Shown piece by piece: positions 1 to 19,871 of a stretch of 20,426 nucleotides of DNA. The stretch comes from a virus. Within the stretch, counting starts at the first letter, position 1. Each line of letters starts with the position of its first letter. The DNA lies in the IMG/VR virus record IMGVR_UViG_3300050498_000097, positions 66,700 to 87,125 of that record, one strand, 5' to 3'. Position numbers and translations under genes: made by a program. The notes beneath the pieces were generated by a model. The model had not been told where the DNA came from. It worked only from the letters and a program-made list of their open reading frames with translations, and made no database searches.

Positions 1-347
1 TTAGCGGTAGTGGGTATCTGGGCATTTCTAGCTACGATTGGGATCCGGTCGTGGGCACGGAAACCTTCTTGACTCGTAGTCCAGCCACGACTCTCCGGAT
101 GTCTCTTATGCGCCTTTTGCTCTAGTGCCCAGCGGTGGTTCGCCGTCGACAGTGACGTATGGTTCTGACTCCTCATCTGCAGCATGGGTTCGTCAACGAC
201 GTCGAATACATTTACGGCCTGGGCTGGCTGCCATTCGGACTGGCCAGTGTCATGATTCAGGGTCAAGATGCAATCACCGGGTGCCAATTGATCGTAGGTG
301 ACCCAGCCATGGTCCCTGGTTAACGTCTGGGTATCCATCGACAAGCA
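1..347 (-). mobile_element. Intein N-terminal splicing region inside the portal gene (partial)
   Basis: After ENHW the frame reads CLSMDTQTLTRDHGWVTYDQLAPGDCILTLNHDTGQSEWQP...STANHRW, i.e. block A (Cys1) and block B (TxxH). Confidence 0.85.
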
Positions 348-1331
348 CCAATGGTTCTCGGCGCCTGAGCCTGATAAAACCTCTGGCGGCATGTCCATGC
401 CAACGCCAAGCCGTTCCACTGCCTCTTTGCGCAGATCCATGGCCTGTTTGCTGAGTTCAGACTCGAAGTTCAGCAGTTTCCAACCGTCAGCGTTGTCGGA
501 TTCCACGATGTGCGGCAGGACACCTAGAGCGGATCCTTCGCCCCGGAGACTGGCAGCACCAGCGGTAGCCAGGCGCACCATCAGGGACTCGGCATTGTTG
601 GTGGTGTTTTCTTCTTGAGGGAGGTCCAGGTTGTTCGGGATAATCAGGATGCCGGCGCCAATGAGGCGAGAGTCAATTTGAGAGAAGATGTACTTGGTTA
701 ATTGCTCCAGTTCCCGAAGTACGGATTGGCAGGACCTAGATGGAGAATCAGCGCACCAGACCCGGTTTGGGTGCGGAGTCCACACACGGGTAATCACATT
801 GCGTTCAAGGTCTAATCGAAACCGTTCTCCGTTGGGTAGGCCCCAGGCCCATTGCCATTCGCCATTTGCGCCTTGTACCCGTCGCATCTCCGTGGAGGAC
901 AGGATGTACCACTCGTCCCTGCCGCTATCCTCATCGGGCCGGCCGACAACATAACATTCGCCGGCCACCGTGAGGTTGATGCCCATGGAGCGCAGGGCCT
1001 CGGCCTTGGCGGCGGGGCCACCTAACAACGAGTCTGCGAGTGCATTAACCTTCCGGTTCTTCGTCTCGCCCTGAATCCGGCCCAGCTCATCGACCTTGGC
1101 CACGTAAATGCGAACCCTGGAACAGCACTGGCCAACCCATCGAGCTGCAAACCCAAACTCCGGCACAATGTCATACAGCCGCCACAGCTCTCGCTGCCAC
1201 GTCTCATCACGCCATCTCCAGGCGCTATAGGACAGGTCACTGAATGTGGTCCTAATGGCCGACGCGACCAATGATTTCCTGTGCGGAGGCTCGGGGCTTA
1301 CGGCAACCGCCTTACCTCTACCAAAGGCCAT
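1..1331 (-). CDS. Probable phage portal protein containing an intein (partial, runs off the left edge)
   Basis: Not in the ORF track because it has no stop in the window. Read manually from ATG at 1331: MAFGRGKAVAVSPEPPHRKSLVASA...WQRELWRLYDIVPEFGFAARWVGQCCSRVRIYVA...NLTVAGECYVVG...ITRVWTPHP...ADSPSRS...LRELEQLTKYIFSQIDSRLIGAGILIIP...GMDMPPEVLSG..NHW. These motifs resemble actinophage portal proteins. Same strand as the terminase. Confidence 0.8.
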   Translation of the reverse strand, partial: MAFGRGKAVAVSPEPPHRKSLVASAIRTTFSDLSYSAWRWRDETWQRELWRLYDIVPEFGFAARWVGQCCSRVRIYVAKVDELGRIQGETKNRKVNALADSLLGGPAAKAEALRSMGINLTVAGECYVVGRPDEDSGRDEWYILSSTEMRRVQGANGEWQWAWGLPNGERFRLDLERNVITRVWTPHPNRVWCADSPSRSCQSVLRELEQLTKYIFSQIDSRLIGAGILIIPNNLDLPQEENTTNNAESLMVRLATAGAASLRGEGSALGVLPHIVESDNADGWKLLNFESELSKQAMDLRKEAVERLGVGMDMPPEVLSGSGAENHWCLSMDTQTLTRDHGWVTYDQLAPGDCILTLNHDTGQSEWQPAQAVNVFDVVDEPMLQMRSQNHTSLSTANHRWALEQKAHKRHPESRGWTTSQEGFRAHDRIPIVARNAQIPTTA

Positions 1332-4371: not shown

Positions 4372-4400
4372 TTGACAGTACCCGGACGTGGGGGTACGGT
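4372..4400 (+). promoter_or_regulatory. SigA-type promoter of the tRNA array
   Basis: TTGACA-N17-TACGGT, overlapped by the inverted repeat GTACCC-N8-GGGTAC. Confidence 0.75.
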
Positions 4401-4736: not shown

Positions 4737-4808
4737 GTGGGTGTGATGCAGCGGCAAGCATGGCTGTCTCCAAAGCAGCTTACGAGGGTTCGAGTCCTTC
4801 CACCCGCG
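4737..4808 (+). tRNA. tRNA-Trp(CCA)
   Basis: GTGGGTG/CACCCGC acceptor; GCTGT-CT CCA AA-GCAGC; GGTTCGAGTCC. Confidence 0.9.
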
Positions 4809-4905
4809 CTCAGGTTTCAGGGAACTGAGACCTAGTTAATTGTCAATTCCACAGTGGACAGCATGTGAAGGTCCTGGAAGCAGATAGCGGCTGCCAGGAC
4901 CGAAT

Positions 4906-4980
4906 CGGGGTGTAGCCCAGCTTGGTCAGGGCGCCTGCTTTGGGAGCAGGAGACCGGGGGTTCGAATCCCTCCTCCCCGA
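4906..4980 (+). tRNA. tRNA-Pro(TGG)
   Basis: CGGGGTG start; CCTGC-TT TGG GA-GCAGG; GGTTCGAATCC. Confidence 0.92.
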
Positions 4981-5063
4981 CGACCCGTCTCTGCTGAACT
5001 GCTTCGCGCCGTTGCTGACCATTGGTCCTCACCGGTTCCACCCAGTTCCCAGAGACGGCTCTA

Positions 5064-5136
5064 GGGCCTATAGCTCAGTTGGTAGAGCATGCGTCTGGCA
5101 GGCGTAAGGTGCCCGGTTCGAGACCGGGTAGGTCCA
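5064..5136 (+). tRNA. tRNA-Ala(GGC)
   Basis: GGGCCTA/TAGGTCC with G3:U70; TGCGT-CT GGC AG-GCGTA. Confidence 0.92.
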
Positions 5137-5145
5137 CTCAAATTT

Positions 5146-5218
5146 GCCACTGTAGCTGAGATGGTGTAGCGCCTGATTGAAGATCAGGAGTACGGCGGTT
5201 CGAGCCCGTCCGGTGGCA
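5146..5218 (+). tRNA. tRNA-Phe(GAA)
   Basis: GCCACTG/CGGTGGC; CCTGA-TT GAA GA-TCAGG. Confidence 0.92.
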
Positions 5219-5223
5219 CGCAT

Positions 5224-5299
5224 GGACCGTTGGAGTAATGGTCATCTCACCTGATTCTCAGTCAGGAGAATGTCGGTTCGATCCCGACACGGTCTACCA
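5224..5299 (+). tRNA. tRNA-Glu(CTC), CCA encoded
   Basis: GGACCGT/ACGGTCT; CCTGA-TT CTC AG-TCAGG. Confidence 0.92.
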
Positions 5300-5391
5300 T
5301 GGCAGTTCTCTCAGGCCATGTCCCTTGTGCACAAAAGCCACTGGTACCGGTGACAGAGAGATGAGCGAGCTGCTAAGGCAGCTCGCAATAT

Positions 5392-5462
5392 GCCGGCGAA
5401 ATGTAGTGGTTGCATCTCTGCCTTCCAAGCAGATCGGGCGGGTCCGATTCCCGTCGCCGGTT
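5392..5462 (+). tRNA. tRNA-Gly(TCC)
   Basis: GCCGGCG/CGCCGGT, U73; TCTGC-CT TCC AA-GCAGA; variant T-loop TCCGATT. Confidence 0.85.
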
Positions 5463-5463
5463 C

Positions 5464-5673
5464 ATGAAACTTGATAAAGGTCCAGCTGAATATCTCCGGG
5501 CCCTAGCAAGTGGTGACCCAGAGAAGATTGCAGAGGCTATGGAGTTCCAGCGGGAAAGCTTCCGAGCCAGGTTCGGGTGTTACCCAGAGGAGCTGAAATG
5601 GGAATGCACCTGTGAAAGTGCCAATCGTTGGCCATTCAAGGAATGTACTTGCCCTGGCTGGACGGATGATTAA
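5464..5673 (+). CDS. Small Cys-containing hypothetical protein in the tRNA array
   Basis: MKLDKGPAEYLRALASGDPEK...CTC...CTC fills the gap between two tRNAs exactly. The track start at 5410 lies inside the tRNA. Confidence 0.65.
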   Translation: MKLDKGPAEYLRALASGDPEKIAEAMEFQRESFRARFGCYPEELKWECTCESANRWPFKECTCPGWTDD

Positions 5674-5746
5674 TGGCAGCTCGTCTAATTGGTAGGACGC
5701 TGGACTTTGACTCCGGTCGATGGAAGTTCGAATCTTCCGCTGCCAG
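5674..5746 (+). tRNA. tRNA-Gln(TTG)
   Basis: TGGCAGC/GCTGCCA (U1-A72), G73; CTGGA-CT TTG AC-TCCGG. Confidence 0.9.
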
Positions 5747-5750
5747 CTTG

Positions 5751-5824
5751 GCCGTACTGTGCTACGCGGTAAAGCAGCTGATCTCAAAAATCAGTGATGC
5801 AGGGTTCGACTCCCTGGTGCGGCA
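5751..5824 (+). tRNA. tRNA-Leu(CAA) with short variable loop
   Basis: GCCGTAC/GTGCGGC; CTGAT-CT CAA AA-ATCAG; no long V-arm. Confidence 0.85.
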
Positions 5825-5825
5825 C

Positions 5826-6104
5826 GTGACAACACTCGACTGTTTCAAATGTGGCATTGTCCTGGAGCCTGCTTTTCGGGAGGATGCTGACAACCAGCCG
5901 TATGCCGGCACTACATTCATCTCCTACGGTCAGTACGGAAGTACAGTGTGGGATCCCCCAGTAAGTGAAGGCCACCGCAGGTTCCTGGAGATAAACATCT
6001 GTGACAGGTGTCTGGTCGCAGGCAAAGATGCAGTTCTCCATGTCGACAAGGTCCCACGGGCTCCTATTTACAACTACCAGCCCTGGAATCCAGAGGCTGA
6101 GTAG
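5826..6104 (+). CDS. Hypothetical protein with CxxC...CxxC
   Basis: GTG start; LDCFKCG...GQYGSTVWDP...INICDRCL. Fills the inter-tRNA gap. Confidence 0.75.
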   Translation: MTTLDCFKCGIVLEPAFREDADNQPYAGTTFISYGQYGSTVWDPPVSEGHRRFLEINICDRCLVAGKDAVLHVDKVPRAPIYNYQPWNPEAE

Positions 6105-6109
6105 GCAAT

Positions 6110-6182
6110 GCCCTCAAAGCTCACCAGGTGGAGCGCGTCCATGGTAAGGACGAGGTTGTCGGTTCGAATCCGACTGGGGGCT
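6110..6182 (+). tRNA. tRNA-Thr(GGT)
   Basis: GCCCTCA/TGGGGGC; CGTCC-AT GGT AA-GGACG. Confidence 0.88.
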
Positions 6183-6280
6183 CGTTAGCTGCTACTGACT
6201 CTGCCAGTACTGCCGGTGGTTCCAGCAAGCCAATAATCCTTGTGACGGCCCTGGGCGTCGCGTCCGGCCAGCTAACCATT

Positions 6281-6354
6281 GGAGATGTAGCTCAGTTGGT
6301 CAGAGCGTCTGCTTGCCAAGTAGAAGGTCGCCGGTTCGAAGCCGGTCATCTCCT
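6281..6354 (+). tRNA. tRNA-Gly(GCC)
   Basis: GGAGATG/CATCTCC, U73; TCTGC-TT GCC AA-GTAGA. Confidence 0.9.
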
Positions 6355-6395
6355 CGCCCTGTCTGTAACGGAGCCCATGAAAGGGGGCTGACTCA

Positions 6396-6842
6396 ATGCA
6401 AGCAGTACTCGTTCTGAACGCTGACCTTGGACCCTTGCATCGGGTCAGCCTCCGGCACGCTATCCGGATGCTCTGCCGCAACGTGGCTGAGGTCCATGAA
6501 GCGGAGCCCGACATACGGTTTGCACTTTTCGGGGGCATGCCCAAGGTCGTGCGCCTGGTGAAGTACATCGTCACCAAGTGGCGCTACACCGCAGGACCCG
6601 CCTGGTCTCGGCCGGGAGTTCTCAACCGGGACAACCGGCACTGTGGCTACTGCAACGGCAAGGCCACAACCGTTGACCACGTCACTCCCACCTCGCGTGG
6701 GGGCCGGAACACTTGGCAGAACACGGTTGCCTCGTGCGATCCGTGTAACCAGCACAAGGGAAACCGGACGCCAGCGGAAGCCGGCATGACTCTGAGGTCC
6801 AAGCCGGTAGCCCCAACGTGGGCGACGCTGGCAGCAAGGTAA
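6396..6842 (+). CDS. HNH endonuclease (McrA-like family often found with tRNA arrays)
   Basis: VLVLNA...RDNRHCGYCNGKATTVDHVTPTSRGGRNTWQNTVASCDPCNQHKGNRTPAEAGM. Confidence 0.93.
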   Translation: MQAVLVLNADLGPLHRVSLRHAIRMLCRNVAEVHEAEPDIRFALFGGMPKVVRLVKYIVTKWRYTAGPAWSRPGVLNRDNRHCGYCNGKATTVDHVTPTSRGGRNTWQNTVASCDPCNQHKGNRTPAEAGMTLRSKPVAPTWATLAAR

Positions 6843-6864
6843 GACTCCTGGGGGAGGAGGTCTC

Positions 6865-7077
6865 GTGACTGAGACATGGGAAGAGCACTGCAACAGCTAC
6901 TGCTCACACGGTGGTGTCTGCGAGTTGAGTCGTGGTCATGATGGCCTCCACGACTCCAGCTACTGCGAGTGGAGTGACGAAGAGGCCATCAGCCGGGAAG
7001 ATGCCGACGAGATTCTCAGTAGCAAGGGCCCCGAGGGGGCCATGCTCAAGACTCTCTGGGACATCTTTATCGACTAA
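6865..7077 (+). CDS. Small acidic Cys/His-rich hypothetical protein
   Basis: SD GGAGGAGG before GTG; C-x-L-x-x-GH-x-G-x-H motif. Confidence 0.7.
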   Translation: MTETWEEHCNSYCSHGGVCELSRGHDGLHDSSYCEWSDEEAISREDADEILSSKGPEGAMLKTLWDIFID

Positions 7078-7153
7078 GATGCAAGACGCTGGTCCCCGTG
7101 TTCGGGGATAATCCCATGGTAAAGAGAAGCACTGCTTCCGCCAGCGGACACAT

Positions 7154-7226
7154 CCCAGATTCGGCTAACTTGGTAGGCCACCCGGCTCTGGACCGGGCAA
7201 TCGAGGTTCGAATCCTTGATCTGGGG
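7154..7226 (+). tRNA. tRNA-Gln(CTG)
   Basis: CCCAGAT/ATCTGGG; CCCGG-CT CTG GA-CCGGG. Confidence 0.88.
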
Positions 7227-7332
7227 CGGTGGAGGACGCGCAAGCGGGTTGGCACAGGGTGCACCCATAGCCGCCAGCGAACTGGATAAACTGGGGATCG
7301 ATCGGCCCCAGTAAGGGGATCCTCCGCTGTAT

Positions 7333-7406
7333 GTCCGAGTAGGCAAACTGGAAAAGCCGTCAGACTGAGAGTCTGGTGCTTGCGGGTTCGACTCCCGCCT
7401 TGGGCA
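7333..7406 (+). tRNA. tRNA-Leu(GAG) with short variable loop
   Basis: GTCCGAG/CTTGGGC; TCAGA-CT GAG AG-TCTGG; 5-nt variable loop. Confidence 0.88.
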
Positions 7407-7537
7407 CGTGAGGTGTTAACAGGGCAAGAAGGAGAGCAGGTGTCACAAGGAGCCCTGAAGGCTAGGTCATGATGGGGTCAAAAATACCTCGCTCCTTCGG
7501 TACTCCTATGCCCCGAGTCTAGATCTGCACCTCCGTT

Positions 7538-7611
7538 GCCAGTCAAGCACCGCAGGTAGGTGCGCCGGGCCTGTACCCCGGAGGCGGTCGGTTCGAGCCC
7601 GACGACTGGCT
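7538..7611 (+). tRNA. tRNA-Thr(TGT) with C33
   Basis: GCCAGTC/GACTGGC, U73 like the other two Thr genes; CCGGG-CC TGT AC-CCCGG. Confidence 0.78.
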
Positions 7612-7642
7612 CGCAATATAATCACTCACCGACGACCAGCAC

Positions 7643-8011
7643 GTGACGCTGGAACAGATGAAGATACCAATGAAGTACGGCTGGAGCCGTAGCAGAGGTT
7701 TCAGTCTTCGTGATGTCGAGAACAAGTGGTCCTATCACCTGACCCTTTGGCGCCAGCCCTGGCATCGATGGCTGATATTTAAGATCTACCACTGGTACGA
7801 CATGCGTGTGTACAAGATGCCAGGATTCAAGGTCATTGAGAACTGGCTCCTGTACTGGAAAGGGCGTCGTTATCCGGGAGAGATCTGTCTTCCGTGGAGT
7901 GCTGAACAGGACTGCCGCTGCTACTTCCTCTCAGAGAAGCAGCGAAAGGTACTGCTCAACCTGGAACTGACCAAGGAGCAATACGACGGCCTCAAGGGGC
8001 ACGACGAATAG
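7643..8011 (+). CDS. Trp-rich hypothetical protein
   Basis: 122-aa ORF filling the gap between two tRNA-Thr genes. TATAAT at about 7617. Start uncertain. Confidence 0.7.
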   Translation: MTLEQMKIPMKYGWSRSRGFSLRDVENKWSYHLTLWRQPWHRWLIFKIYHWYDMRVYKMPGFKVIENWLLYWKGRRYPGEICLPWSAEQDCRCYFLSEKQRKVLLNLELTKEQYDGLKGHDE

Positions 8012-8017
8012 CAACAG

Positions 8018-8091
8018 GCCCGCGTAGCACGGCAGGTACGTGCAGCCGCCTCGTAAGCGGAAGGTTCCCGGTTCAAGACCGGGCGTGGGCT
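8018..8091 (+). tRNA. tRNA-Thr(CGT)
   Basis: GCCCGCG/CGTGGGC; GCCGC-CT CGT AA-GCGGA. Confidence 0.88.
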
Positions 8092-8197
8092 CGGGTACTC
8101 CGTTTCGACCACCGGATATGAACCGCAAGGAAATGCGGATGAAATCAGTGATGAGGCTGAGAGTTGCGTTCCGCCGTAGGTGGGAGGAGTACTTCTA

Positions 8198-8266
8198 GGG
8201 GGATGTGCTGGTGCACAGGCTTGACTTGCAATCAGGCCCCGATCGGTTCGATACCGATATTCTCCA
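8198..8266 (+). tRNA. tRNA-Ala(TGC) with truncated D region
   Basis: GGGGGAT/ATTCTCC with G3:U70; CTTGA-CT TGC AA-TCAGG; only 69 nt long. Confidence 0.75.
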
Positions 8267-8491
8267 CGGGTGGTAAGGCCCCCGAAAGGGGTGTATGCGT
8301 CTCATCGAGTCCCTAGGTACCTAGTCTTCCTCTAGGTAGGATGCAGCAGTCGTGCAAGCTGGTGGCTTGCGTGATGTCTTACCGCCCTCTTCTGGTAGAA
8401 GGTCCGGACAGCAAGGATCAAGAACTGAAGCTAGCAGGCTGGCTGGTTGGGCCTGGCGGTGATGAGTGGCTTCAGTCGCCTTCTACCACAT

Positions 8492-8568
8492 GCCGATGCA
8501 CGCTGACGGCTCAAGCGGCCTGACTTAGGATCAGGTGTTTTAGGGTTCGAATCCCTACATCGGCACCA
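8492..8568 (+). tRNA. tRNA-Leu(TAG) with short variable loop, CCA encoded
   Basis: GCCGATG/CATCGGC; CCTGA-CT TAG GA-TCAGG. Confidence 0.88.
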
Positions 8569-8579
8569 AGTAATCAGAT

Positions 8580-8652
8580 GCTTGGGTACTCCAACGGTAG
8601 AGAGGCCCGACTTAAAATCGGGAAAGTATGGGTTCGAATCCCATCCCGAGCA
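8580..8652 (+). tRNA. tRNA-Leu(TAA) with short variable loop
   Basis: GCTTGGG/CCCGAGC; CCCGA-CT TAA AA-TCGGG. Confidence 0.88.
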
Positions 8653-8678
8653 CCTGAATACTCCTGGAGAAAGTCAAT

Positions 8679-8754
8679 GCTTCGTTAGCGTAGTCTGGTC
8701 AAACGCACCTCCCTGTCAAGGAGGAGACCACGGGTTCGAATCCCGTACGAGGCG
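8679..8754 (+). tRNA. tRNA-Asp(GTC)
   Basis: GCTTCGT/ACGAGGC, G73; CCTCC-CT GTC AA-GGAGG. Confidence 0.93.
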
Positions 8755-8763
8755 CAGTACATT

Positions 8764-8852
8764 GGTGGGATGGCCGAGTGGTCAAAGGCGCGGCACTGCT
8801 AATGCCGAGGTCGTCGTAAGGCGGCCCCCGAGTTCGAATCTCGGTCCCACCG
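8764..8852 (+). tRNA. tRNA-Ser(GCT)
   Basis: GGTGGGA/TCCCACC; CGGCA-CT GCT AA-TGCCG; long V-arm. Confidence 0.93.
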
Positions 8853-8857
8853 CACAA

Positions 8858-8932
8858 GGGGATATAACTCAGTCTGGTCAGAGTTCCGATCTGATACATC
8901 GGCGGTCGGAGGTTCAAATCCTCTTATCCCCA
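8858..8932 (+). tRNA. tRNA-Ile(GAT)
   Basis: GGGGATA/TATCCCC; CCGAT-CT GAT AC-ATCGG. Confidence 0.93.
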
Positions 8933-9228
8933 CGAGCAAACTCAGCCATTTCCTGTGGCCAACTGAAAGTTTGCCAATTGCTTGGATCATCAAGCAATGC
9001 TCGTAGCTCAATTAAGAGGGCCTCAATAAGGTCTTCAAACCCAGGGTCTCTTGCCTGACGCAACGCATGACACCTGGTGATTAACGCACACACTTCTTCC
9101 TGCTTGCTCGGCCACAGGACCTGCTCCGAAAATGGTTGATGGTATTTCTTAACATCGAAGTCGACATGGCCCCAGCCACCAGTTTCATCGTCAACCATCC
9201 TGTCGTGACTTATGAAACGCCATGTCAT
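8914..9228 (-). CDS. Hypothetical protein antisense to the tRNA array
   Basis: 104-aa protein-like ORF that fills a lower-GC inter-tRNA gap. Its last codons overlap tRNA-Ile. Confidence 0.6.
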   Translation of the reverse strand: MTWRFISHDRMVDDETGGWGHVDFDVKKYHQPFSEQVLWPSKQEEVCALITRCHALRQARDPGFEDLIEALLIELRALLDDPSNWQTFSWPQEMAEFARGDKRI

Positions 9229-9243
9229 AGGACAACGTTACAT

Positions 9244-9316
9244 GCCCCAGTAGCTCAACGGATAGAGCACCTGACTACGGATCAGGAGGTTGCGCGTTCA
9301 AATCGTGCTTGGGGTA
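9244..9316 (+). tRNA. tRNA-Arg(ACG)
   Basis: GCCCCAG/TTGGGGT; CCTGA-CT ACG GA-TCAGG. Confidence 0.93.
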
Positions 9317-9408
9317 CCGAGGTGCTGGGTATGGCGCCTGAGCGTGAGCTATCTAATGGCCGCAAGTCTCGGCTTCTAGTCGACGGAAGCCAGGCACATA
9401 TCCACTAA

Positions 9409-9492
9409 GGTGGGGATCCGGCTGGATGAGGAGCCTGGTTCGAAGTCAGGTAACAGGTAACACTGTTCGGAGTTCGAGTCTCCGTCCCACCG
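9409..9492 (+). tRNA. tRNA-Ser(CGA)
   Basis: GGTGGGG/TCCCACC; CCTGG-TT CGA AG-TCAGG; long V-arm. Confidence 0.85.
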
Positions 9493-9496
9493 CAAT

Positions 9497-9580
9497 GGAA
9501 GATGACCGGCTGGTCGAGGGGCATCGTTGGAAGCGATGTACAGGGTCACACCTGCACGTGTTCGAATCACGTATCTTCCG
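9497..9580 (+). tRNA. tRNA-Ser(GGA)
   Basis: GGAAGAT/ATCTTCC; CATCG-TT GGA AG-CGATG; long V-arm. Confidence 0.85.
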
Positions 9581-9584
9581 CACT

Positions 9585-9669
9585 GGAGACGCCAGCCGAT
9601 AGGTGCCGGCCGCGAGCTTGAACCTCGTTGGGGGTAACACCCGTGGGAGTTCGACTCTCTCCGTCTCCG
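9585..9669 (+). tRNA. tRNA-Ser(TGA)
   Basis: GGAGACG/CGTCTCC; GCGAG-CT TGA AC-CTCGT; long V-arm. Confidence 0.85.
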
Positions 9670-9674
9670 CACAT

Positions 9675-9747
9675 GCGCCGGTAGCTCAGTGGTCAGAGCT
9701 GGGTTCTCTTAAAGCTCAGGTCGTCGGTTCGAATCCGACTCGGCGTA
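9675..9747 (+). tRNA. tRNA-Lys(CTT)
   Basis: GCGCCGG/TCGGCGT; GGGTT-CT CTT AA-AGCTC. Confidence 0.92.
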
Positions 9748-9775
9748 CGTTGGGGTTATGCTAGGGTGCTTTTCC

Positions 9776-10240
9776 ATGGTCCTTGGGAAGCACTGTAGTA
9801 AGTGTCAAGCAGCAGAGGCATTGCCATACACACACATGTGTCGACCTTGCTACAACGCTCGCATGAACAACTACATGACCGAACGGTACTATCGTCGTCG
9901 CGCAGCAGCCATCAAAGAGTTAGGTGGTCATTGCGCCAAATGCCGGTCACGTGCCGGATTAGAAATCGATCACATTGACCGCACCTTGAAACAGTATTCC
10001 ATTAGCAAGATTCTTGCTTCTGCGCCAGAGGCAAGATATCAACAAGAGCTAAAGAAGTGTCAACTTCTTTGTAGGCGTCATCACAAAGCCAAGTCAAGCA
10101 AAGAGCAGTCCGTCTCTCATGGGACAGGACTTACGGGCAGGAAAAATTGTCGCTGTGAACTGTGCAGGCCACTGAAGAATGCATATATACGGGAATGGAA
10201 GAAGAAGAAAAGGCTCCAGCAACTTACCACCGGCGCCTGA
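9776..10240 (+). CDS. HNH homing-type endonuclease with zinc-finger flanks
   Basis: LGGHCAKC...LEIDHIDRTLK...ELKKCQLLCRRHHKAK and a C-terminal HGT..CRCELC. TGcTAGGGT -10 box 8 nt before ATG 9776 (track start 9758). Confidence 0.88.
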   Translation: MVLGKHCSKCQAAEALPYTHMCRPCYNARMNNYMTERYYRRRAAAIKELGGHCAKCRSRAGLEIDHIDRTLKQYSISKILASAPEARYQQELKKCQLLCRRHHKAKSSKEQSVSHGTGLTGRKNCRCELCRPLKNAYIREWKKKKRLQQLTTGA

Positions 10241-10301
10241 GTGGACGGGCTCCGTACTTTTAATGCGGATTGTGGAGGTTCGAATCCTCTCGGTGGTACC
10301 A
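10226..10301 (+). tRNA. tRNA-Lys(TTT), CCA encoded
   Basis: ACCACCG/CGGTGGT; CCGTA-CT TTT AA-TGCGG. The first 15 nt overlap the end of the HNH ORF. Confidence 0.85.
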
Positions 10302-10302
10302 C

Positions 10303-10373
10303 GCCCTTCGTGCCGGAAGCACAGCCGGGTCTTCTAAACCCAGCATCGCTGAGTTCAACTCTCAGGAGGGGCA
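10303..10373 (+). tRNA. tRNA-Arg(TCT) with truncated D region
   Basis: GCCCTTC/GAGGGGC; GGGT-CT TCT AA-ACCC; CTGAG-TTCAACT-CTCAG. Confidence 0.75.
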
Positions 10374-10393
10374 CTGGTACGATGTAACCACGA

Positions 10394-10464
10394 CGCGGAT
10401 GTGGTGGAGAGGTACCATACCGGGCTCATAACCCGGAGACGCCGTTCGAATCGGACATCCGCCA
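10394..10464 (+). tRNA. Initiator-type tRNA-fMet(CAT) with atypical acceptor/T-stem partition
   Basis: CGCGG start with mismatched first pair; CCGGG-CT CAT AA-CCCGG (three G-C pairs); short T stem. Confidence 0.78.
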
Positions 10465-10533
10465 CTAGGCCTTGGTCCTGGCACCGGGAGTGCCAGGCGC
10501 AAGCTCGGCATACACTCCGAGGCCAGGGTCCTT

Positions 10534-10605
10534 GCCCGTGTAGCTCAGCGGTAGAGCATCGTCTCGACATGGCGGTGGCCCCAGGTTCAAATCCTGGTAC
10601 GGGTA
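10534..10605 (+). tRNA. tRNA-Val(GAC) with C33
   Basis: GCCCGTG/TACGGGT; TCGTC-TC GAC AT-GGCGG. Confidence 0.88.
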
Positions 10606-10649
10606 CGAGGGACCAGTTGGCAGTCCCAGTTCAGCTGGTCCCTCATCAT

Positions 10650-10722
10650 GGAGCCGTAGACTAATGGTCAGGTCCCCTGGCTTTCAATCAGGATGGTGCC
10701 GGTTCGAATCCGGCCGGCTCTA
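10650..10722 (+). tRNA. tRNA-Glu(TTC)
   Basis: GGAGCCG/CGGCTCT; CCTGG-CT TTC AA-TCAGG. Confidence 0.92.
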
Positions 10723-10727
10723 CTCAT

Positions 10728-10809
10728 TCCCCTGTCGCCTAACTGGTATGGCACCGGATTGTTAATCCGACGCAGCAACGCATTGCTGGTTCGAATCCAG
10801 CCGGGGGAG
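10728..10809 (+). tRNA. tRNA-Asn(GTT) with long variable region
   Basis: TCCCCTG/CGGGGGA, G73; CGGA-TT GTT AA-TCCG; ~14-nt variable region. Confidence 0.85.
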
Positions 10810-10830
10810 CATTACACGCAGGAGGTCGTC

Positions 10831-11190
10831 ATGCAGAAGGTCGAGGTCTGGTTTCATCAGGATGGTGACCACCTGGCAATTGTCGAGGTTCCTTGGTGGA
10901 CTGACATCTTCGAAAGGGTCATTGTCAATCGGCTCTGCCCCTGCTGCGGAGTCAGTGGTTGGATCTCGGGCAAATCTGAGAGGGTCGAAGTAGCTTTCTA
11001 CCGGATCTGGAATAAGCTGCTAAACGTCTCGCACACCCGACGCAAGGAGCTGTTCAAGGTTCCGGTAGTAAACGGATGTGTTGCTAGCCATGCTCTTTGG
11101 CCAGAACAGCGGAAAGACACCTGCTTCCGAGACGACTGTGAAAACTGCTGGCACCTGGGAGAGGATGCATTTCAGTACGAAGCGAAATAA
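10831..11190 (+). CDS. Hypothetical protein with CPCC and CxxC motifs
   Basis: SD AGGAGG before ATG 10831. Stop lies 1 nt before the next tRNA. Confidence 0.75.
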   Translation: MQKVEVWFHQDGDHLAIVEVPWWTDIFERVIVNRLCPCCGVSGWISGKSERVEVAFYRIWNKLLNVSHTRRKELFKVPVVNGCVASHALWPEQRKDTCFRDDCENCWHLGEDAFQYEAK

Positions 11191-11191
11191 C

Positions 11192-11266
11192 GCACCAGAG
11201 CCCATCCGGTAGGTGGGGTCTGCCTTATAAGCAGAACGCGGTCGGGTTCAACTCCCACCTGGTGCA
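11192..11266 (+). tRNA. tRNA-Ile(TAT)
   Basis: GCACCAG/CTGGTGC; TCTGC-CT TAT AA-GCAGA; bulged T stem. Confidence 0.8.
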
Positions 11267-11268
11267 CT

Positions 11269-11342
11269 GTGCCTGTAGCTCAACGATAGAGCGCTGGGTT
11301 GTGGCCCCGGATATGCCGGTTTAACTCCGGTCAGGCACCCCA
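11269..11342 (+). tRNA. tRNA-His(GTG), CCA encoded
   Basis: GTGCCTG/CAGGCAC, C73; CTGGG-TT GTG GC-CCCGG; T-loop TTTAACT. Confidence 0.85.
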
Positions 11343-11343
11343 A

Positions 11344-11428
11344 GCCAATGTTGGACAACGGTTGTCCCGCTGCCTGTAAAGCAGTCGCGCTGCGCGCATT
11401 GCAGGTTCGAATCCTGCCATTGGCACCA
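11344..11428 (+). tRNA. tRNA-Tyr(GTA), CCA encoded
   Basis: GCCAATG/CATTGGC; GCTGC-CT GTA AA-GCAGT; long V-arm. Confidence 0.9.
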
Positions 11429-11429
11429 G

Positions 11430-11502
11430 ATCCCTGTAGCTCAACGGATAGAGCACGGTCCTCCGGAGGCCGGTGTAGCTGGTTCGACTCCAGTCAGGGA
11501 TA
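11430..11502 (+). tRNA. tRNA-Arg(CCG)
   Basis: ATCCCTG/CAGGGAT; CGGTC-CT CCG GA-GGCCG. Confidence 0.9.
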
Positions 11503-11511
11503 CTCGACCAA

Positions 11512-11588
11512 GGCCTGCGCCTGTAGCTGGTTGCTGCACTACGCCTGCAAAGCGTGGAATCAATGGAGTTCGATTCTCCCGTGGGTCT
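11512..11588 (+). tRNA. tRNA-Cys(GCA) with atypical D arm
   Basis: GGCCTGC/GTGGGTC, U73; TACGC-CT GCA AA-GCGTG; extended D stem TGTAGC/GCTGCA. Confidence 0.78.
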
Positions 11589-11589
11589 C

Positions 11590-11820
11590 GTGAGCGACAG
11601 AATCCTGCGTCGTACCACCTGCACTGTTCCCGGCCACGGCACCAGCTGTGAGCCATCACAGGAACGGGACAATAGGCACTCCCGCTGCACAGAGGAGCAG
11701 TACGCCTTATCTCTGGAGCTAGCCGCCAACGCCTGCCAATACTGCGAGACGCCGTTTGATCCAGTGCGGTACCGCTGGTTATGTCCGTACTGCCACGGGA
11801 AGAACACCTGTTGCGAATAG
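11590..11820 (+). CDS. Small zinc-ribbon-like protein
   Basis: GTG start; CQYCETPFDPVRYRWLCPYCHGKNTCCE. Confidence 0.65.
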   Translation: MSDRILRRTTCTVPGHGTSCEPSQERDNRHSRCTEEQYALSLELAANACQYCETPFDPVRYRWLCPYCHGKNTCCE

Positions 11821-11837
11821 CTGTCCACTGTGGTCTT

Positions 11838-11907
11838 GCCGAGCGGCCTTGGGTGCCATCTGCCTTTCATACGGGCGGCTTGCCCAGTTCAAATCTGGGG
11901 CTCGGTA
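11838..11907 (+). tRNA. tRNA-Met or Ile2 (CAT) with truncated D region
   Basis: GCCGAGC/GCTCGGT; TGCCT-TT CAT AC-GGGCG; CCCAG-TTCAAAT-CTGGG. Confidence 0.72.
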
Positions 11908-11908
11908 C

Positions 11909-12385: not shown

Positions 12386-12421
12386 TGTCGTCGTACCTCG
12401 GTACCTTGACTTTTGAATAGA

Positions 12422-12563
12422 TGTTGCCGGATCCGAAGATCAGGGTTACTTCGCCTGTTAAGCGGGAGATCGCAGAGTTCGAATCTCTGCCTGGGGCTTT
12501 GGTCCCAGTAGCTTAGTGGCAAAGCGCCTAACGTGTCCTTGGTCGCCATGTTGCCCGGCAACG
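12422..12563 (+). ncRNA. yrlA: YrlA-type Y RNA with a circularly permuted tRNA-Asn-like domain
   Basis: Terminal stem GTTGCCGG/CCGGCAAC, Ro-site-like ATCCGA...TTG and TTACTTC. Then an anticodon-like arm (CT GTT AA), T arm GCAGA-GTTCGAAT-CTCTGC, loop-closed acceptor CTGGGGC-TTTG-GTCCCAG and D arm TAGCTTAGTGGCAAAGC. Directly upstream of a TROVE gene. Confidence 0.9.
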
Positions 12564-12575
12564 TCACACAAGCTT

Positions 12576-12660
12576 TGCTGCCAGATCCGCAGGTTCGGGT
12601 TACTTCATCGAAAATTGGTTTCGAACCCAAGGTCCTGAGCCGATTAGTCGTCTGGCAGCA
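12576..12660 (+). ncRNA. Y RNA copy 2 (T-arm-like remnant only)
   Basis: TGCTGCCAGA/TCTGGCAGCA stem, TCCG, GGTTCGGG/CCTGAGCC, TTACTTC, TTGGT-TTCGAA-CCCAA. Confidence 0.8.
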
Positions 12661-12669
12661 TAAAGACTT

Positions 12670-12742
12670 TGGCGCAGGTCCGAAGGACGGGGCTACTTCA
12701 TCCAATCAGAAAATGCCTCGCCCGCCTCTGTTGTCTGTGTCA
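12670..12742 (+). ncRNA. Y RNA copy 3 (minimal, no tRNA-like domain)
   Basis: TGGCGCAGG/TCTGTGTCA stem, GTCCGA...TTG, CTACTTC. Confidence 0.78.
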
Positions 12743-12753
12743 CCATGTACCAC

Positions 12754-12866
12754 GTTGCTAGATCCGATAGGTTTGGGTTACTTCAAAGGTTCAATTCCTT
12801 TCTTTCCCACCAAACATGGGAAAGCCGCCTGGTGCGGATACCTGAGCCGCCTAGTTGCCTAGCAGC
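12754..12866 (+). ncRNA. Y RNA copy 4 (T arm, acceptor-like stem and D-like arm)
   Basis: GTTGCTAG/CTAGCAGC stem, ATCCGA...TTG, TTACTTC, AAAGG-TTCAATT-CCTTT, TTTCCCA/TGGGAAA, CCGC-CTGGT-GCGG. Confidence 0.82.
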
Positions 12867-12937: not shown

Positions 12938-14548
12938 ATGGCAAGAATCAACACCAAGGGTGCACGCACGACCAAGCCTTCAGCAGTTGGTCCAGTGCGC
13001 ACTGTTGCAAAGGACACAGTTACCTACGAAGGCGCTCCCGCTTACACCAGGGATGCCAAGTCGGAGCTATTCCTACTTGCCGTGTCCCAGTTCGTTGGGG
13101 AGCAGACCTTCTACGAGAAGGCTGACGACCGCACACAGCGCCTGGTCAACCTGGTTCGGACTGTAGCTGCTCAGGCCAATGGCCCAGAGTGGTTGCTGAA
13201 GTTCGTCCCTTGGCTACGTAAGGATGCCAACATCCGTACCGCAGCAATCATCGCTGCCGTGGAGGCAGCTCGGGCTCTACGTGAGAAAGGACAGACGGGA
13301 CAGGAGCCTGGCTACGCACGGCAGGTCCTTCGTGACACCATCACTCGTGCCGATGAGCCAGCTGAGGCACTGGCCTATCAGTTGAACACCTACGGCCGTA
13401 AGGTTCCCAAGCCTGTCCTCCGGGGCATTGCTGATGCTGCCACGCGCCTGTACAGCGAGCGCAACTTCATTAAGTGGAACGGAGATGGTGCGGTCAAGAT
13501 GGCTGACGTCATCGAACTGACCCATCCCAAGCCAAAGGCTCCTTGGCAGTCGACATTGTTCAAGTACATTTTGGACAGTCGACGTACAGGTGCAGAGCTG
13601 GACACGGATGCATTGCCCATGCTGTCAGCTCGGGCTCTGCTCCTTGCTGCACCCACCGAGGAGAAGAAGGCTGTTCTATCTGCGCCAGATGCTGCCGAGA
13701 TGCTGGACGCTGCCGGCATGACCTGGGAGCAGGTTTCTTCATGGGCTGCCTTCACGGCAGCCACCTGGGAAGCTCTGATCCCAACCATGGGATACATGGC
13801 CCTACTGCGGAACTTGCGCAACTTCCAGGAGGCTGGTATCAGCAAGCAGGCCATGAAGTTTGTGGCCGATAAGCTGGCTGATCCTGACGAGGTCATGAGG
13901 TCACGGCAGCTGCCATACCGGTTCCTGTCTGCCTACTTGGAGGCAACCAACTCGATGTGGGCACGGCCACTGGAGGCAGCTCTGGAGGTCTCAACATTGA
14001 ACATCCCGAGCCTGCCTGGCCGGACCTTGGTCCTAGTAGACACGTCAGGATCTATGACCAGTGTCGGCTACAGCGCCAAGTCGAAGATCAAGCCAGTTCA
14101 GGCTGGCGCTCTCTTCGGCATTGCCCTGGCAGCTAAGGGTGAACAGGTTGAACTTTTCGGCTTCGATGACCAGCTGTTTCCGTTTGCTCTCAAGCGTGGT
14201 GCAGGCGTTCTTCGAGCCACTGAGGAATTCAGCAAACTGGCCCGTGGAGGCGGCACCCAGACCGCCAAAGCCCTGAAGGCTACCTGGAATGGCCACGACC
14301 GAGTTGTTATCGTCACCGATGAGCAGACCTTTGGCCCACGCCAAGGGTACTGGCAGGGCGACGTGTCATCCCAGATCCCTGCCGAGGTGCCGATCTACAG
14401 CTTCAACATGGTTGGTTACGCACCGTCCATGATGGAGACTTCAGCCACTCGGCATCAGCTTGGTGGATTGACGGATGCCACCTTCTCAATGATCAGTCTC
14501 CTTGAGGCCGGTCAACAGGCAAAGTGGCCCTGGGAGCAGAGCAGGTAA
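12938..14548 (+). CDS. rsr: Ro60-related TROVE domain protein with C-terminal vWA domain
   Basis: TYEGAPAYTRDAKSELFLLAV..FYE, ADVIELTHPKP, GYMALLRNLRN, SRQLPYRFLSAY, MIDAS motif LVDTSGSM, IVTDEQ. Purine-rich SD, adjacent to Y RNAs. Confidence 0.96.
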   Translation: MARINTKGARTTKPSAVGPVRTVAKDTVTYEGAPAYTRDAKSELFLLAVSQFVGEQTFYEKADDRTQRLVNLVRTVAAQANGPEWLLKFVPWLRKDANIRTAAIIAAVEAARALREKGQTGQEPGYARQVLRDTITRADEPAEALAYQLNTYGRKVPKPVLRGIADAATRLYSERNFIKWNGDGAVKMADVIELTHPKPKAPWQSTLFKYILDSRRTGAELDTDALPMLSARALLLAAPTEEKKAVLSAPDAAEMLDAAGMTWEQVSSWAAFTAATWEALIPTMGYMALLRNLRNFQEAGISKQAMKFVADKLADPDEVMRSRQLPYRFLSAYLEATNSMWARPLEAALEVSTLNIPSLPGRTLVLVDTSGSMTSVGYSAKSKIKPVQAGALFGIALAAKGEQVELFGFDDQLFPFALKRGAGVLRATEEFSKLARGGGTQTAKALKATWNGHDRVVIVTDEQTFGPRQGYWQGDVSSQIPAEVPIYSFNMVGYAPSMMETSATRHQLGGLTDATFSMISLLEAGQQAKWPWEQSR

Positions 14549-17605: not shown

Positions 17606-19871
17606 TTAGAAATTGCTATAGCTCCCAGCGTCTTGCCATAGCGACTGAAGCGTCGAAGACAAAACGTCGCGTGGGCTTGCGATACGGACCTCTTTCTTTT
17701 CACCGTCCATTAGGAATCGGCAGGCATGGACCAAGGCGTCCAGGCGGTCTGGGGATTCTCTAGTTCCCCAGCCGACAAAGGTCGACATCTGGTCCTCCAG
17801 CTTGGGCATGTGTCCAACTATGTGGAGCCGACCCTGTTCGCAGCGCATGGCAACAGGCTCGCCCCTGGTTCGCTTACCCAGCTTCGTGTCAATTCGAACC
17901 AGTGGCGGCTTGGTATTGGCCGGGAATGTGCCAAGGCCCACCAACTCGTAGTAGGCATCGTTGAACACCTGCTGCATCCAGCGCTTGCCCAAGTTCTCTT
18001 CTACTACCAACTTGTCAGCGCCGAACTCGGCCACTACGCGCCAAGCCTCTAGGGCCGCAGCTCGGCCTACGGCCATAACTGAACGATCAGCTTGGACATA
18101 CAGATGCTTCTGTCGGTCCCGAGAGACGACGATGATACCCATCTCGTCGTCCTCACCAGTGAGGCTTGGGTCTACTCCGACCACCGTGGAAACCAGCCCA
18201 TCGGGCGTGTCATCAACCCGGTAGTTCTCGATATCAAGGCGTGTGAACAGGGCACCGTCGAAAGCCTCGATAATGTCGCCATACAGTTCCTGGCGCCCGA
18301 TCGTAGTTCCCTCAAACCGACGTCTCAATTCCTCAATTACCAGTGAGGATAAGTTGGCCTGGTTTTCAAACGTGGATCCACGAATAACGTGGACTGTGCC
18401 ATCATCTCGCTTCACCCAGTCCTGGATGATGTCGATTGGCTTCGGCGTCGTGGTTACAAAAGCTCGTGGATGGTCGTTTGTGAGATCAGTCCGCAGCGAC
18501 GGCATGATCCCCTCACTCCACGAACGCCCTGGCCAGCGCCATTTACAATTATGGATAAGTAGCTGGCCACTTCCGGCAAAAAACTCTGGAGCATCACCAG
18601 CAACTGTGATGTCGTAAACGTCAACTGGAGCGGAGACCTTGACGACGTCTACGACGAGCGTCGTTGTTCTTCTCCCTGCCAGCTGCTGCTCGACAAGAGG
18701 CGCCGCAAAACTTGGCCCGCATTCCGTTACTAAGGTACTCAATACCGCACTGAGCACAGATAACTGGTCGTGCCTCTCGGCGCTTCCAATAGGCTGTGAG
18801 TCGCTTAGAGGTTGCCTCTGGGGACATGTTACTAATCCACGCCTCATCATCCCGCTGTCTGCAACTAAGGGCTCGGTGATCGTGAATGGTAAGAAGTTCC
18901 AGATTCCCGATCCGGTTGTCCCAACGTTTCCGATTAATGTGGTTAATTTCATGGCCTTCTGGGATGGGTCCATACTTCTTGATCCAGATGCATCTATGGA
19001 GTAATGACCCAGACCGATTGAGGTGGTAGCCCATCCTCTTATTGAAGTACCAACATTCACCATCCCAGTCATAGAAGGCTGGGGCTTCGCTGGCGACTGG
19101 GTCTTCATTTCCTGTTGACATGTCGTCATAATGTCATATGGCGCTACGTGGCGTGCGTCAACCCACCGGCCATTTGCCCAAACCCTGTGCTCTGGCGTGA
19201 CCCTGACGGCACCCGAAGTGGTTCTGATCTCCAGGACCTCGGCGTTTCGGCGAGTGAGTCCAGCTTTAATGACTGGACGCCACCCCTTGCGCGTCAGCAC
19301 TAGGTCTCCAGCACGCACATCCTGAACGAAGATTCGACCGCGAGCAGTAGTTATAAGTTCATGTTTGGCGACACAGATTTCATCAAGCCATGCTCCAGCT
19401 AAGTTGTAACCACGGCCAACATCCGGATTATCTGCACCCTCGGTATAGATCTTTGATCCATTAGGGAATAGGACCATGGGGCGTGGGGACATCTTATATC
19501 GATGTCTGATCTTTTTGCGCTCCAGTACCCGCAGGATCCCGGCTGGCCCCTCCATGCAAATGGTCCGGGCATCAGACAATGTTTCAGCAATCACCAACCA
19601 CTCGGTTGGTGTACCACTGCTGTCGTAAGGATGCTTTAAGACTTGCCCAGCAATCCATTCACTTCCACTTCTCGATTTCCCGAAAGCCGCGTCCGGCTAA
19701 AGCTAGACAGACAAACCACCCGCCATCAGGCGGCACCTGTTCTGGTCGTGCGACCCACCACCATTCACCCCTGAGCATCTCCTCGATCATGTACGGCGGC
19801 TGTCCCGCCAACCACGCCAGACGCTCGGGCTCTGGGAGGGCTGCAACCCTATCCTGCAGTGATAACCCCAT
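17606..19871 (-). CDS. Terminase large subunit with intein and +1 frameshift at about 19683-19685
   Basis: N-terminal segment (19871-19683) WVARPEQVPP..LAGRGF joins GKSRSGSEW in the +1 frame. Walker B AWLDE, TTTPKP, RQELYG, nuclease VVGVDP and SPDRLDALVHA. Confidence 0.92.
18548..19375 (-). mobile_element. Intein (276 aa) in the terminase at the Walker B motif
   Basis: WLDEI|CVAKHELITTARG...TPEHRVW...VYDITV...EFFAG...LIHN|CKW. Confidence 0.93.
18621..19121 (-). CDS. HNH homing endonuclease encoded in an alternative frame inside the intein
   Basis: LHRCIWIKKYGPIPEGHEINHINRKRWDNRIGNLELLTIHDH plus a CAQC...FCGASC zinc finger. Confidence 0.88.
   Translation of the reverse strand: MSTGNEDPVASEAPAFYDWDGECWYFNKRMGYHLNRSGSLLHRCIWIKKYGPIPEGHEINHINRKRWDNRIGNLELLTIHDHRALSCRQRDDEAWISNMSPEATSKRLTAYWKRREARPVICAQCGIEYLSNGMRAKFCGASCRAAAGREKNNDARRRRRQGLRSS

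Follow-up and report, generated by a model that had tools for sequence, protein, structure and literature searches.

A phage tRNA array framed by pre-23S rRNA-like signals and interspersed with candidate families of structured small RNAs

In this study we examine the tRNA array of an uncultured soil phage, contained in a 20,426-nt stretch of DNA (IMG/VR record IMGVR_UViG_3300050498_000097, positions 66,700 to 87,125; hereafter the window, whose first nucleotide is position 1). The window is the terminal part of an 87-kb phage contig and encodes a portal protein, a terminase, a Ro60/TROVE protein and, on the + strand at 4737..11908, an array of 36 tRNAs called by ARAGORN plus one class II tRNA that ARAGORN missed, with small open reading frames (ORFs) interspersed. 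Eleven spacers of this array, numbered here E1 to E11 in order of position, had been proposed in an initial annotation to be stem-closed RNAs released by tRNA processing, so that the array might serve as a polycistronic platform for undescribed non-coding RNAs acting as protein decoys, as Ro60 cargo or as pieces of one fragmented larger RNA. Judged from sequence, our analysis supports the view that the array is a single polycistronic unit by design, and that at least six of the spacers represent conserved, covarying RNA families absent from Rfam; it speaks against Ro60 cargo as a general role and against one fragmented RNA. Because copies of a boxA-like motif and of the pre-23S rRNA stalk flank the array, it is likely transcribed as one precursor resembling that of an rRNA operon, and because six cassettes recur with conserved predicted folds and belong to no catalogued family, the array likely mass-produces a variable kit of undescribed small RNAs.

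A tRNA array between boxA-like and stalk sequences

The array is bracketed by a 14-bp helix, the 3' strand of which (11820..11833, +), immediately 5' of the last tRNA, is the exact reverse complement of 4849-4862, and the sequence of which matches the actinobacterial boxA/pre-23S rRNA stalk. The 5' strand belongs to a composite of hairpin, boxA-like motif and stalk (4812..4862, +) that matches the actinobacterial 16S-23S spacer immediately 5' of the 23S rRNA. The array spacer that holds this composite, between the Trp and Pro tRNAs, is kept in 14 of the loci compared, and copies of the region in relatives match the host 16S-23S spacer at E 1e-5 to 0.03. We take the motif to be the actinobacterial boxA; in our comparisons it precedes 23S rRNA, and a motif resembling it is also found 5' of 16S rRNA in actinobacteria. 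On the 5' side of the array lies a promoter-like site (TTGACA, 17 nt, TACGGT; 4372..4400, +) at which transcription may begin. The pattern has three matches in the window against 0.82 expected, with 2 of 100 shuffles reaching three, and a stricter promoter scan of the window did not recover the site.

All of the long phage arrays (10/10, two of which are near-identical) have a stalk partner, 7-18 kb from the first strand. Of 22 additional arrays from phages and bacteria, 18 have one too, compensatory forms among them, giving a total of 28/32. The four in which none was found comprise one that has no 5' motif, two with no partner in the fetched stretch and one matched at a wrong site. Both strands covary, changing together between groups of arrays. 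The same helix surrounds the 23S rRNA in three Micromonosporaceae genomes, and the stalk is also present in 13 of the 16 genomic arrays of this family that were checked. Scanning genome contigs with the stalk motif gave two matches, neither with tRNAs, which is chance level, and terminator-like elements showed no excess (13 versus 8.9 +- 2.9 expected).

The arrangement that characterizes an rrn-type precursor, a boxA-like motif 5' of a leader-trailer helix, is therefore found in the array; together with the promoter-like site it supports the interpretation of the array as one designed transcription unit. As in bacterial rRNA operons, a boxA-like motif is followed by a strand that pairs kilobases downstream, in a form near-identical to the actinobacterial pre-23S stalk; unlike in those operons, the stalk encloses not rRNA but 8-40 tRNAs, ORFs and variable small RNAs, in phages as well as in bacterial tRNA arrays. 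In Escherichia coli, RNase III cleaves helices of this leader-trailer kind, and the antitermination complex is brought in by boxA (PMC10250234). Strong hairpins also stand between tRNAs at 4866-4902 and 10607-10644 (folding z-score -6.0 for 10607-10649), and every relative has a long, variable hairpin in the slot of the former.

Contigs of run X2, which has a different study code, cover 4751-10251 with 0 differences, and the array is therefore not an assembly artefact. It includes a gene for an HNH endonuclease (6396..6842, +) that arrays of this kind carry in phages and bacteria alike. Since the best bacterial relatives of this protein nearly all belong to the Micromonosporaceae, and since the four sequencing runs containing most of the stretch, one of which may be its source, are rhizosphere metagenomes, the host is likely a member of that family. 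No RNA run is listed among 22 runs examined, a result that is neutral as to expression. We found no close cultured relative, only tRNA matches, and portal identity was at most 38%. Behind the HNH gene, 6843-7080 has a 70% homolog in a related array (L039) and is a candidate coding or structured stretch. The class II tRNA (Ser, anticodon CGA; 9410..9491, +) adjoins the spacer at 9321-9406; missed by Rfam as well as by ARAGORN, it folds as a cloverleaf and matches at 79% a tRNA-Ser(cga) called in the locus L018. Dense arrays with an HNH gene, in phages and actinobacterial genomes, are likewise a feature of mycobacterial tRNA array units (PMC5966550); the main text of that paper does not contain the terms boxA, spacer or intergenic.

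Spacer closure and covarying RNA families

All of the closing helices quoted in the initial annotation are present, and ten of the eleven spacers fold as closed units. The exception is 5300-5375 (E2), for which closure is not robust and holds only if the segment is cut there, the whole of 5300-5391 favouring an inner stem and a separate 3' hairpin. Against 200 dinucleotide shuffles, eight of the eleven segments reach a folding z-score of -2 or below (E1, -5.7; E2, -2.2; E4, -2.9; E5, -2.5; E7, -2.2; E8, -4.5; E9, -2.3; E11, -2.4) and E3 (-1.0), E6 (-1.4) and E10 (-1.4) do not, all of these values being inflated in that the segment ends had been chosen for closure. Because of this bias we also tested complete ORF-free spacers (50-140 nt) between consecutive tRNAs: six of seven in the window were end-closed versus 0.6 expected from shuffles (antisense strand, 4/7), as were 31 of 84 in ten related phages versus 8.9 expected (antisense strand, 16/84). 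Closing helices start 0-4 nt after a tRNA and stop 2-7 nt before the next, with E4, the E8/E9 pair and E2, whose closure stops 16 nt short of the next tRNA, as exceptions. Most spacers are interleaved between tRNAs as had been described, but 7087-7146 (E4) and the 8268/8393 pair (E8 and E9) have only one flanking tRNA.

None of the eleven spacers has a T-loop and they share no obvious sequence, both in agreement with the earlier description; the best spacer pair has 12 nt in common (E 0.3), and neither a T-arm with a TTCRA loop nor a cloverleaf, as expected of a tRNA or tRNA pseudogene, was found in any of them. Rfam 15, with GOLLD, ROOL, SRP, 5S, ribozymes and riboswitches among its families, gave 0/11 matches at E <= 10 on the + strand. 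Homologs of E3 and E9 matched no family at gathering score, and seven related arrays returned tRNAs only among the best 150 of 247 matches. SRL and CsrA motifs were absent from all eleven spacers. Resemblances were also suspected to lysine, SAM-IV, guanidine-III and c-di-GMP riboswitches, twister, SRP and the L1 stalk; having no Rfam or BLAST support, these were discarded.

Comparison with homologs revealed compensatory changes in six spacers (6184, 7227, 7410, 8268, 8393 and 10468), in a pattern common to the families whereby closing stems are rewritten and inner loops retained. E3 (6184..6276, +) is branched and has a 15-nt loop that hardly varies; within a family of six, 14 of its 22 pairs have changed on both sides. 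E6 (7410..7533, +), also branched and with a predicted long-range pseudoknot, is represented by four distinct sequences, in which 5/16 pairs changed on both sides, 100% of cells are paired and a predicted helix of 7-9 bp crosses two others in every case (4/4). E9 (8393..8488, +), with four phage copies and seven standalone bacterial copies, shows two-sided change at 16 of 25 pairs; its predicted kissing loops are conserved and able to form four pairs in 11/11 sequences, without two-sided change. E11 (10468..10530, +), a three-way junction RNA always located between Met and Val tRNAs, is a family of five with 8/20 pairs changed on both sides. For these four families 0/500 alignment shuffles reached the covariation score, counts that are not to be read as probabilities because the sequences are related and the structures tested were derived from the same alignments, and controls with slid partners scored much lower. 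Two further multibranched RNAs were compared without a shuffle control. E5 (7227..7329, +) has a homolog in a bacterial array (E 1e-5) and a likely second one, picked by eye, in the same slot of a relative, with 6 of 20 pairs changed on both sides (three sequences); E8 (8268..8387, +) is a family of three with 6/30 such pairs, and in a variant strain (run X9, one contig, depth 6) three changes give G-U at paired positions and one is unpaired. E3 and E6, both low-scoring in the folding test, rank among the spacers best supported by covariation.

The other five spacers are E1 (4985..5058, +), an orphan closed stem-loop RNA; E2 (5300..5391, +), a structured spacer with two competing folds and a 28-nt match in two relatives; E4 (7087..7146, +), a small branched RNA with one weak homolog in the same slot (nhmmer E 0.15); E7 (8093..8194, +), a multibranched RNA whose core recurs in two other contigs with different flanks; and E10 (9321..9406, +), a branched orphan with the weakest support of the set. 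Pattern scans added nothing for E6 beyond the four known contigs, and for E7, in viral contigs, gave three copies of one unrelated sequence as chance matches. Group I introns are defined by a P7 with a conserved G-binding helix and by a P4-P6 domain; E6 was considered as such a core and rejected, since by inspection its covarying helix occupies a different register, a P4-P6 domain is missing and Rfam gives no match.

A further explanation is that the cassettes are self-cleaving ribozymes that cut the precursor; E6, in which helices cross and the core is conserved, would be the foremost candidate. Cassettes lie directly 3' of tRNAs, as theta ribozymes do in phages, and a hammerhead-like core with a cleavage triplet can be seen by eye in the spacer of a relative (L046:7514-7664, -). 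We nevertheless consider it very unlikely that the cassettes are ribozymes: Rfam ribozyme families are unmatched, hammerhead (CUGANGA/GAAA) and HDV-like (double pseudoknot, catalytic C) descriptors of our own, run with no positive control, matched 0/11, and closure from end to end is unlike the HDV fold. Similarly, the position of E6 5' of ORFs in three relatives would fit cis-acting elements, such as riboswitch-like leaders or pause signals, governing small ORFs or transcription. To this we give very little credence, most window cassettes being followed by a tRNA and not an ORF, with no Rfam riboswitch match and the number of terminator-like elements not in excess. Compared with theta (HDV-like) ribozymes, which are also small structured RNAs abutting phage tRNA 3' ends (PMC10879173), the cassettes match no HDV-like descriptor or Rfam family and adopt several unrelated folds.

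Mobile cassettes, relatives and neighbouring genes

Portal and HNH searches uncovered 18 further phage arrays or array parts of the same type, and many Micromonosporaceae genomes and bins (L402, L411, L422, L377, L384 and others) have arrays, of 3-38 tRNAs each, that surround this HNH gene. Culturable strains with this array type include Micromonospora humi DSM 45647 (L402) and Catelliglobosispora koreensis DSM 44566 (L377). A phage portal profile detected no prophage in genome contigs and matched 0/5 of the array-bearing bacterial genomes tested. Clustering of ORF-free spacers of 40-260 nt resolved 226 units (some of them missed tRNAs) into 162 clusters, 137 of which are singletons, so that each phage appears to carry its own selection. 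Several families recur in new positions. E3 occupies four different tRNA slots, among them Thr-Gly in the window and Leu-Thr and Ser-Lys in relatives; a 42%-GC phage has it in its tRNA cluster, and a further phage behind a DUF7873 gene. One copy of E6 and one of E9 lie outside the stalk, and E9 stands behind DUF7873 in one relative; the other eight of ten DUF7873 loci show neither E3 nor E9 there. Of 41 matches to an E3 pattern 37 are chance only, and covariance models of E3 and E6 each matched 0/151 Micromonosporaceae genomes.

The E9 covariance model matched 4 of 151 Micromonosporaceae genomes and none of 151 genomes across the class, and an E9 pattern was found in 8 of 401 Micromonosporaceae genomes. 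Seven of these matches align and are standalone copies; the eighth (L598) does not align and was dropped. In genome contigs, the model scored none of 120 pattern loci (26 of 64 parts scanned). None of the four standalone copies scanned with ARAGORN has a tRNA closer than 1.5 kb, and several standalone copies adjoin mobile-element genes (resolvase, GntR/FtsK, RusA). A -10-like box (TANNNT) precedes the core by 17-22 nt in 7/7 standalone copies (background positions, 0.85%), is absent from the three in-array phage copies (0/3) and is present in the phage copy outside the stalk. We interpret E9 as an independent small-RNA gene, carried in the array without a promoter of its own.

These observations bear on the possibility that the spacers are folding insulators or neutral passengers, which fold on themselves so that the tRNAs can fold and mature, the released pieces then decaying without a role. 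Such insulators would account for end-closure and freely changing closing stems, as well as for the preponderance of singleton clusters and the lack of most cassettes in compact arrays of the same type, and the explanation may well hold for E1, E2 and E10. It leaves unexplained the invariant unpaired loops of E3 and E9, the predicted pseudoknots, the changes of slot and the standalone E9 copies with their -10-like box and no tRNA nearby, and for the set as a whole we regard it as unlikely.

The same variability argues against the suggestion that the spacers are pieces of one larger RNA (rRNA-, GOLLD- or ROOL-like) that reassemble after processing. The array does take the place within the pre-23S stalk that 23S rRNA has in the host. 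We nonetheless judge a fragmented RNA very improbable, because cassettes are present or absent independently and in changing order and E9 is a standalone gene elsewhere; nor is there a GOLLD or ROOL match. Among 456 units compared with 16S, 23S and 5S rRNA there was no excess similarity, with 16 sense versus 5 antisense matches at E < 0.05; the boxA/stalk spacer accounts for 12 of the 16 sense ones listed.

The Ro60/TROVE gene (12938..14548, +; Pfam TROVE E 1e-20) raises the alternative that the cassettes are divergent Y-type RNAs, or cargo, tethering the phage TROVE protein to nucleases or repair enzymes. Directly upstream of it, outside the stalk, lie a YrlA-like RNA and three further Y-like repeats (12420..12860, +), of which the YrlA match is weak (12464-12533, E 0.15, under the gathering score); several relatives have similar regions. 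All four phage carriers of E9 have TROVE, compared with 8/16 phages overall, which has a probability of about 0.04 by a simple draw that ignores kinship and the fact that several families were looked at, and one copy each of E3 and E9 leads a group of YrlA-like RNAs linked to DUF7873. Bacterial YrlA and YrlB bind Ro60 through the motif 5' GNCGAAN0-1G (PMC4201824). The cassettes resemble them in that a stem joins their ends and that the same phage has TROVE and Y-like genes; they differ in having neither T nor D arms, and 0/11 contain GNCGAA or the motif of the Y repeats in the window. Most families seem not to follow TROVE: among the carriers of E3, E6, E8 and E11 are records with no TROVE match (G002, G004, G020, G175 and G176), and no TROVE gene was noticed among the listed ORFs neighbouring standalone E9, for which no dedicated search was made. 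As a general role, Ro60 cargo is therefore not borne out, and we hold Ro60 ligands to be quite improbable overall; the idea is weak except, possibly, for E9 (8393).

Downstream of DUF7873 genes (L347:4001-4430, +; L462:1150-1580, -; eight further loci) there is a conserved group of YrlA-type RNAs, tRNA-like and permuted; the genome to which the window belongs is without DUF7873. In the terminase/portal region of the window (3-1331, -, and 17606-19597, -), a weak Hint-domain match was obtained for the terminase, whose gene span includes an HNH ORF (18621-19121), and the portal looks intein-bearing by eye.

From precursor to small RNAs

The reading that we favour, and to which we assign about even chances, is that the spacers are unrelated, individually conserved RNA cassettes, processed from an rrn-like precursor into stable small RNAs that act in trans as protein-binding decoys or ligands. 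Host RNA polymerase would start near 4400 and the boxA-like motif would confer resistance to termination. The 7-kb stalk, for which pairing and covariation are observed, would then form and be cut by RNase III as in pre-23S rRNA. RNase P, cleaving at tRNA 5' ends, and RNase Z, cleaving at the discriminator, could next free the spacers, whose ends fit this geometry; from that geometry, the cassettes are probably released as small RNAs. The terminal helix may protect each product, with its sequence free to change, as the covariation indicates, and the conserved inner loops would bind proteins of the host or of rival elements.

That the cassettes act as decoys is a more tentative proposal, which we rate somewhat below even. 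It draws on the array of a relative that holds a tag-less mini-tmRNA, reduced to the tRNA-like domain with G3-U70 kept (L033:4312-4457, +). An RNA of this type, the tmRNA of mycobacteriophage DS6A that consists of the tRNA-like domain only, is reported to be an inhibitor of tmRNA, possibly through titration of SmpB (PMC4131195). No such RNA occurs in the window, whose cassettes have no tRNA-like domain. The proposal also draws on tRNA-like RNAs without an anticodon arm seen by eye in the arrays of other relatives. A mini-tmRNA similar by eye lies at L039:8045-8145 (+), and RNAs that combine D and T arms with a long acceptor stem, the anticodon arm being absent or unusual, at L037:6168-6247 (-), L039:12879-12961 (+) and L046:7234-7312 (-). 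A 50-nt three-way-junction RNA ending in CCA (L046:7388-7438, -; L117:3906-3955, +; L328:9525-9574, +) forms a 12-unit cluster across several slots of phage and bacterial arrays and is absent from the window.

Several observations weigh against our favoured reading. No cassette resembles host rRNA by sequence. Folding of three cassettes (6184, 7410 and 9321) does not surpass that of shuffles, homologs are absent for E1 and E10 and weak or partial for E2, E4 and E7, and the alignments behind the six families are small (3-11 sequences). E11 never changes slot (Met-Val, 5/5), and tRNA processing would not separate E8 from E9, given the lack of an intervening tRNA. The E9 pattern does not exceed its reversed control (8 versus 8 matches in 401 genomes), and the seven standalone copies therefore rest on alignment and covariation, and four of them also on the covariance model. 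Finally, the range of positions for the -10-like box was set with the data already in view, and the upstream sequence is one and the same in three of the seven copies.

Phage tRNAs are already known to have non-tRNA RNAs as neighbours, among them T4 RNAC and RNAD, GOLLD, ROOL, theta ribozymes and YrlA. T4 RNAC and RNAD are said to lie in the tRNA cluster of that phage, and GOLLD has reportedly been found in Mycobacterium tRNA arrays. The T4 RNAs, late RNAs of unknown function (PMC9697503), are like the cassettes non-tRNA small RNAs of a phage, but T4 has two fixed ones and here there are about ten, unrelated and swappable, a distinction drawn from description and not from sequence. GOLLD and ROOL, structured phage and prophage RNAs near tRNA islands (PMC12286853), are single RNAs of several hundred nucleotides, unlike the cassettes of 60-125 nt with no Rfam match. 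In the literature searched, by listings and abstract openings in a collection with few subscription papers and without supplements, we found no tRNA array enclosed by a pre-23S stalk and none of these families; some of the families could be listed in the motif supplements of large structured-RNA screens such as PMC5737381 and PMC8040213.

In its widest form, which we offer as speculation and think rather unlikely to hold in full, the proposal is that Micromonosporaceae phages and bacterial tRNA arrays have repurposed the expression signals of 23S rRNA as an RNA factory. Phages would collect small-RNA genes of mobile elements as promoterless cassettes, an RNA counterpart of anti-defence islands, each decoying a different RNA-binding protein of the host or a rival and all coming from a reservoir of undescribed RNAs that numbers well above a hundred.

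If our favoured interpretation is true, phage tRNA arrays would be expression platforms for many unrelated small RNAs, with a role beyond tRNA supply, all of which standard annotation misses, and at least six new RNA families would be added together with structural models. The standalone copies would offer a bacterial setting in which E9 could be studied without the uncultured phage, and the pre-23S stalk would provide a simple marker of a 2-18 kb tRNA array as a single transcription and processing unit. The old question of what non-tRNA RNAs do in phage tRNA clusters would thereby become directly testable.

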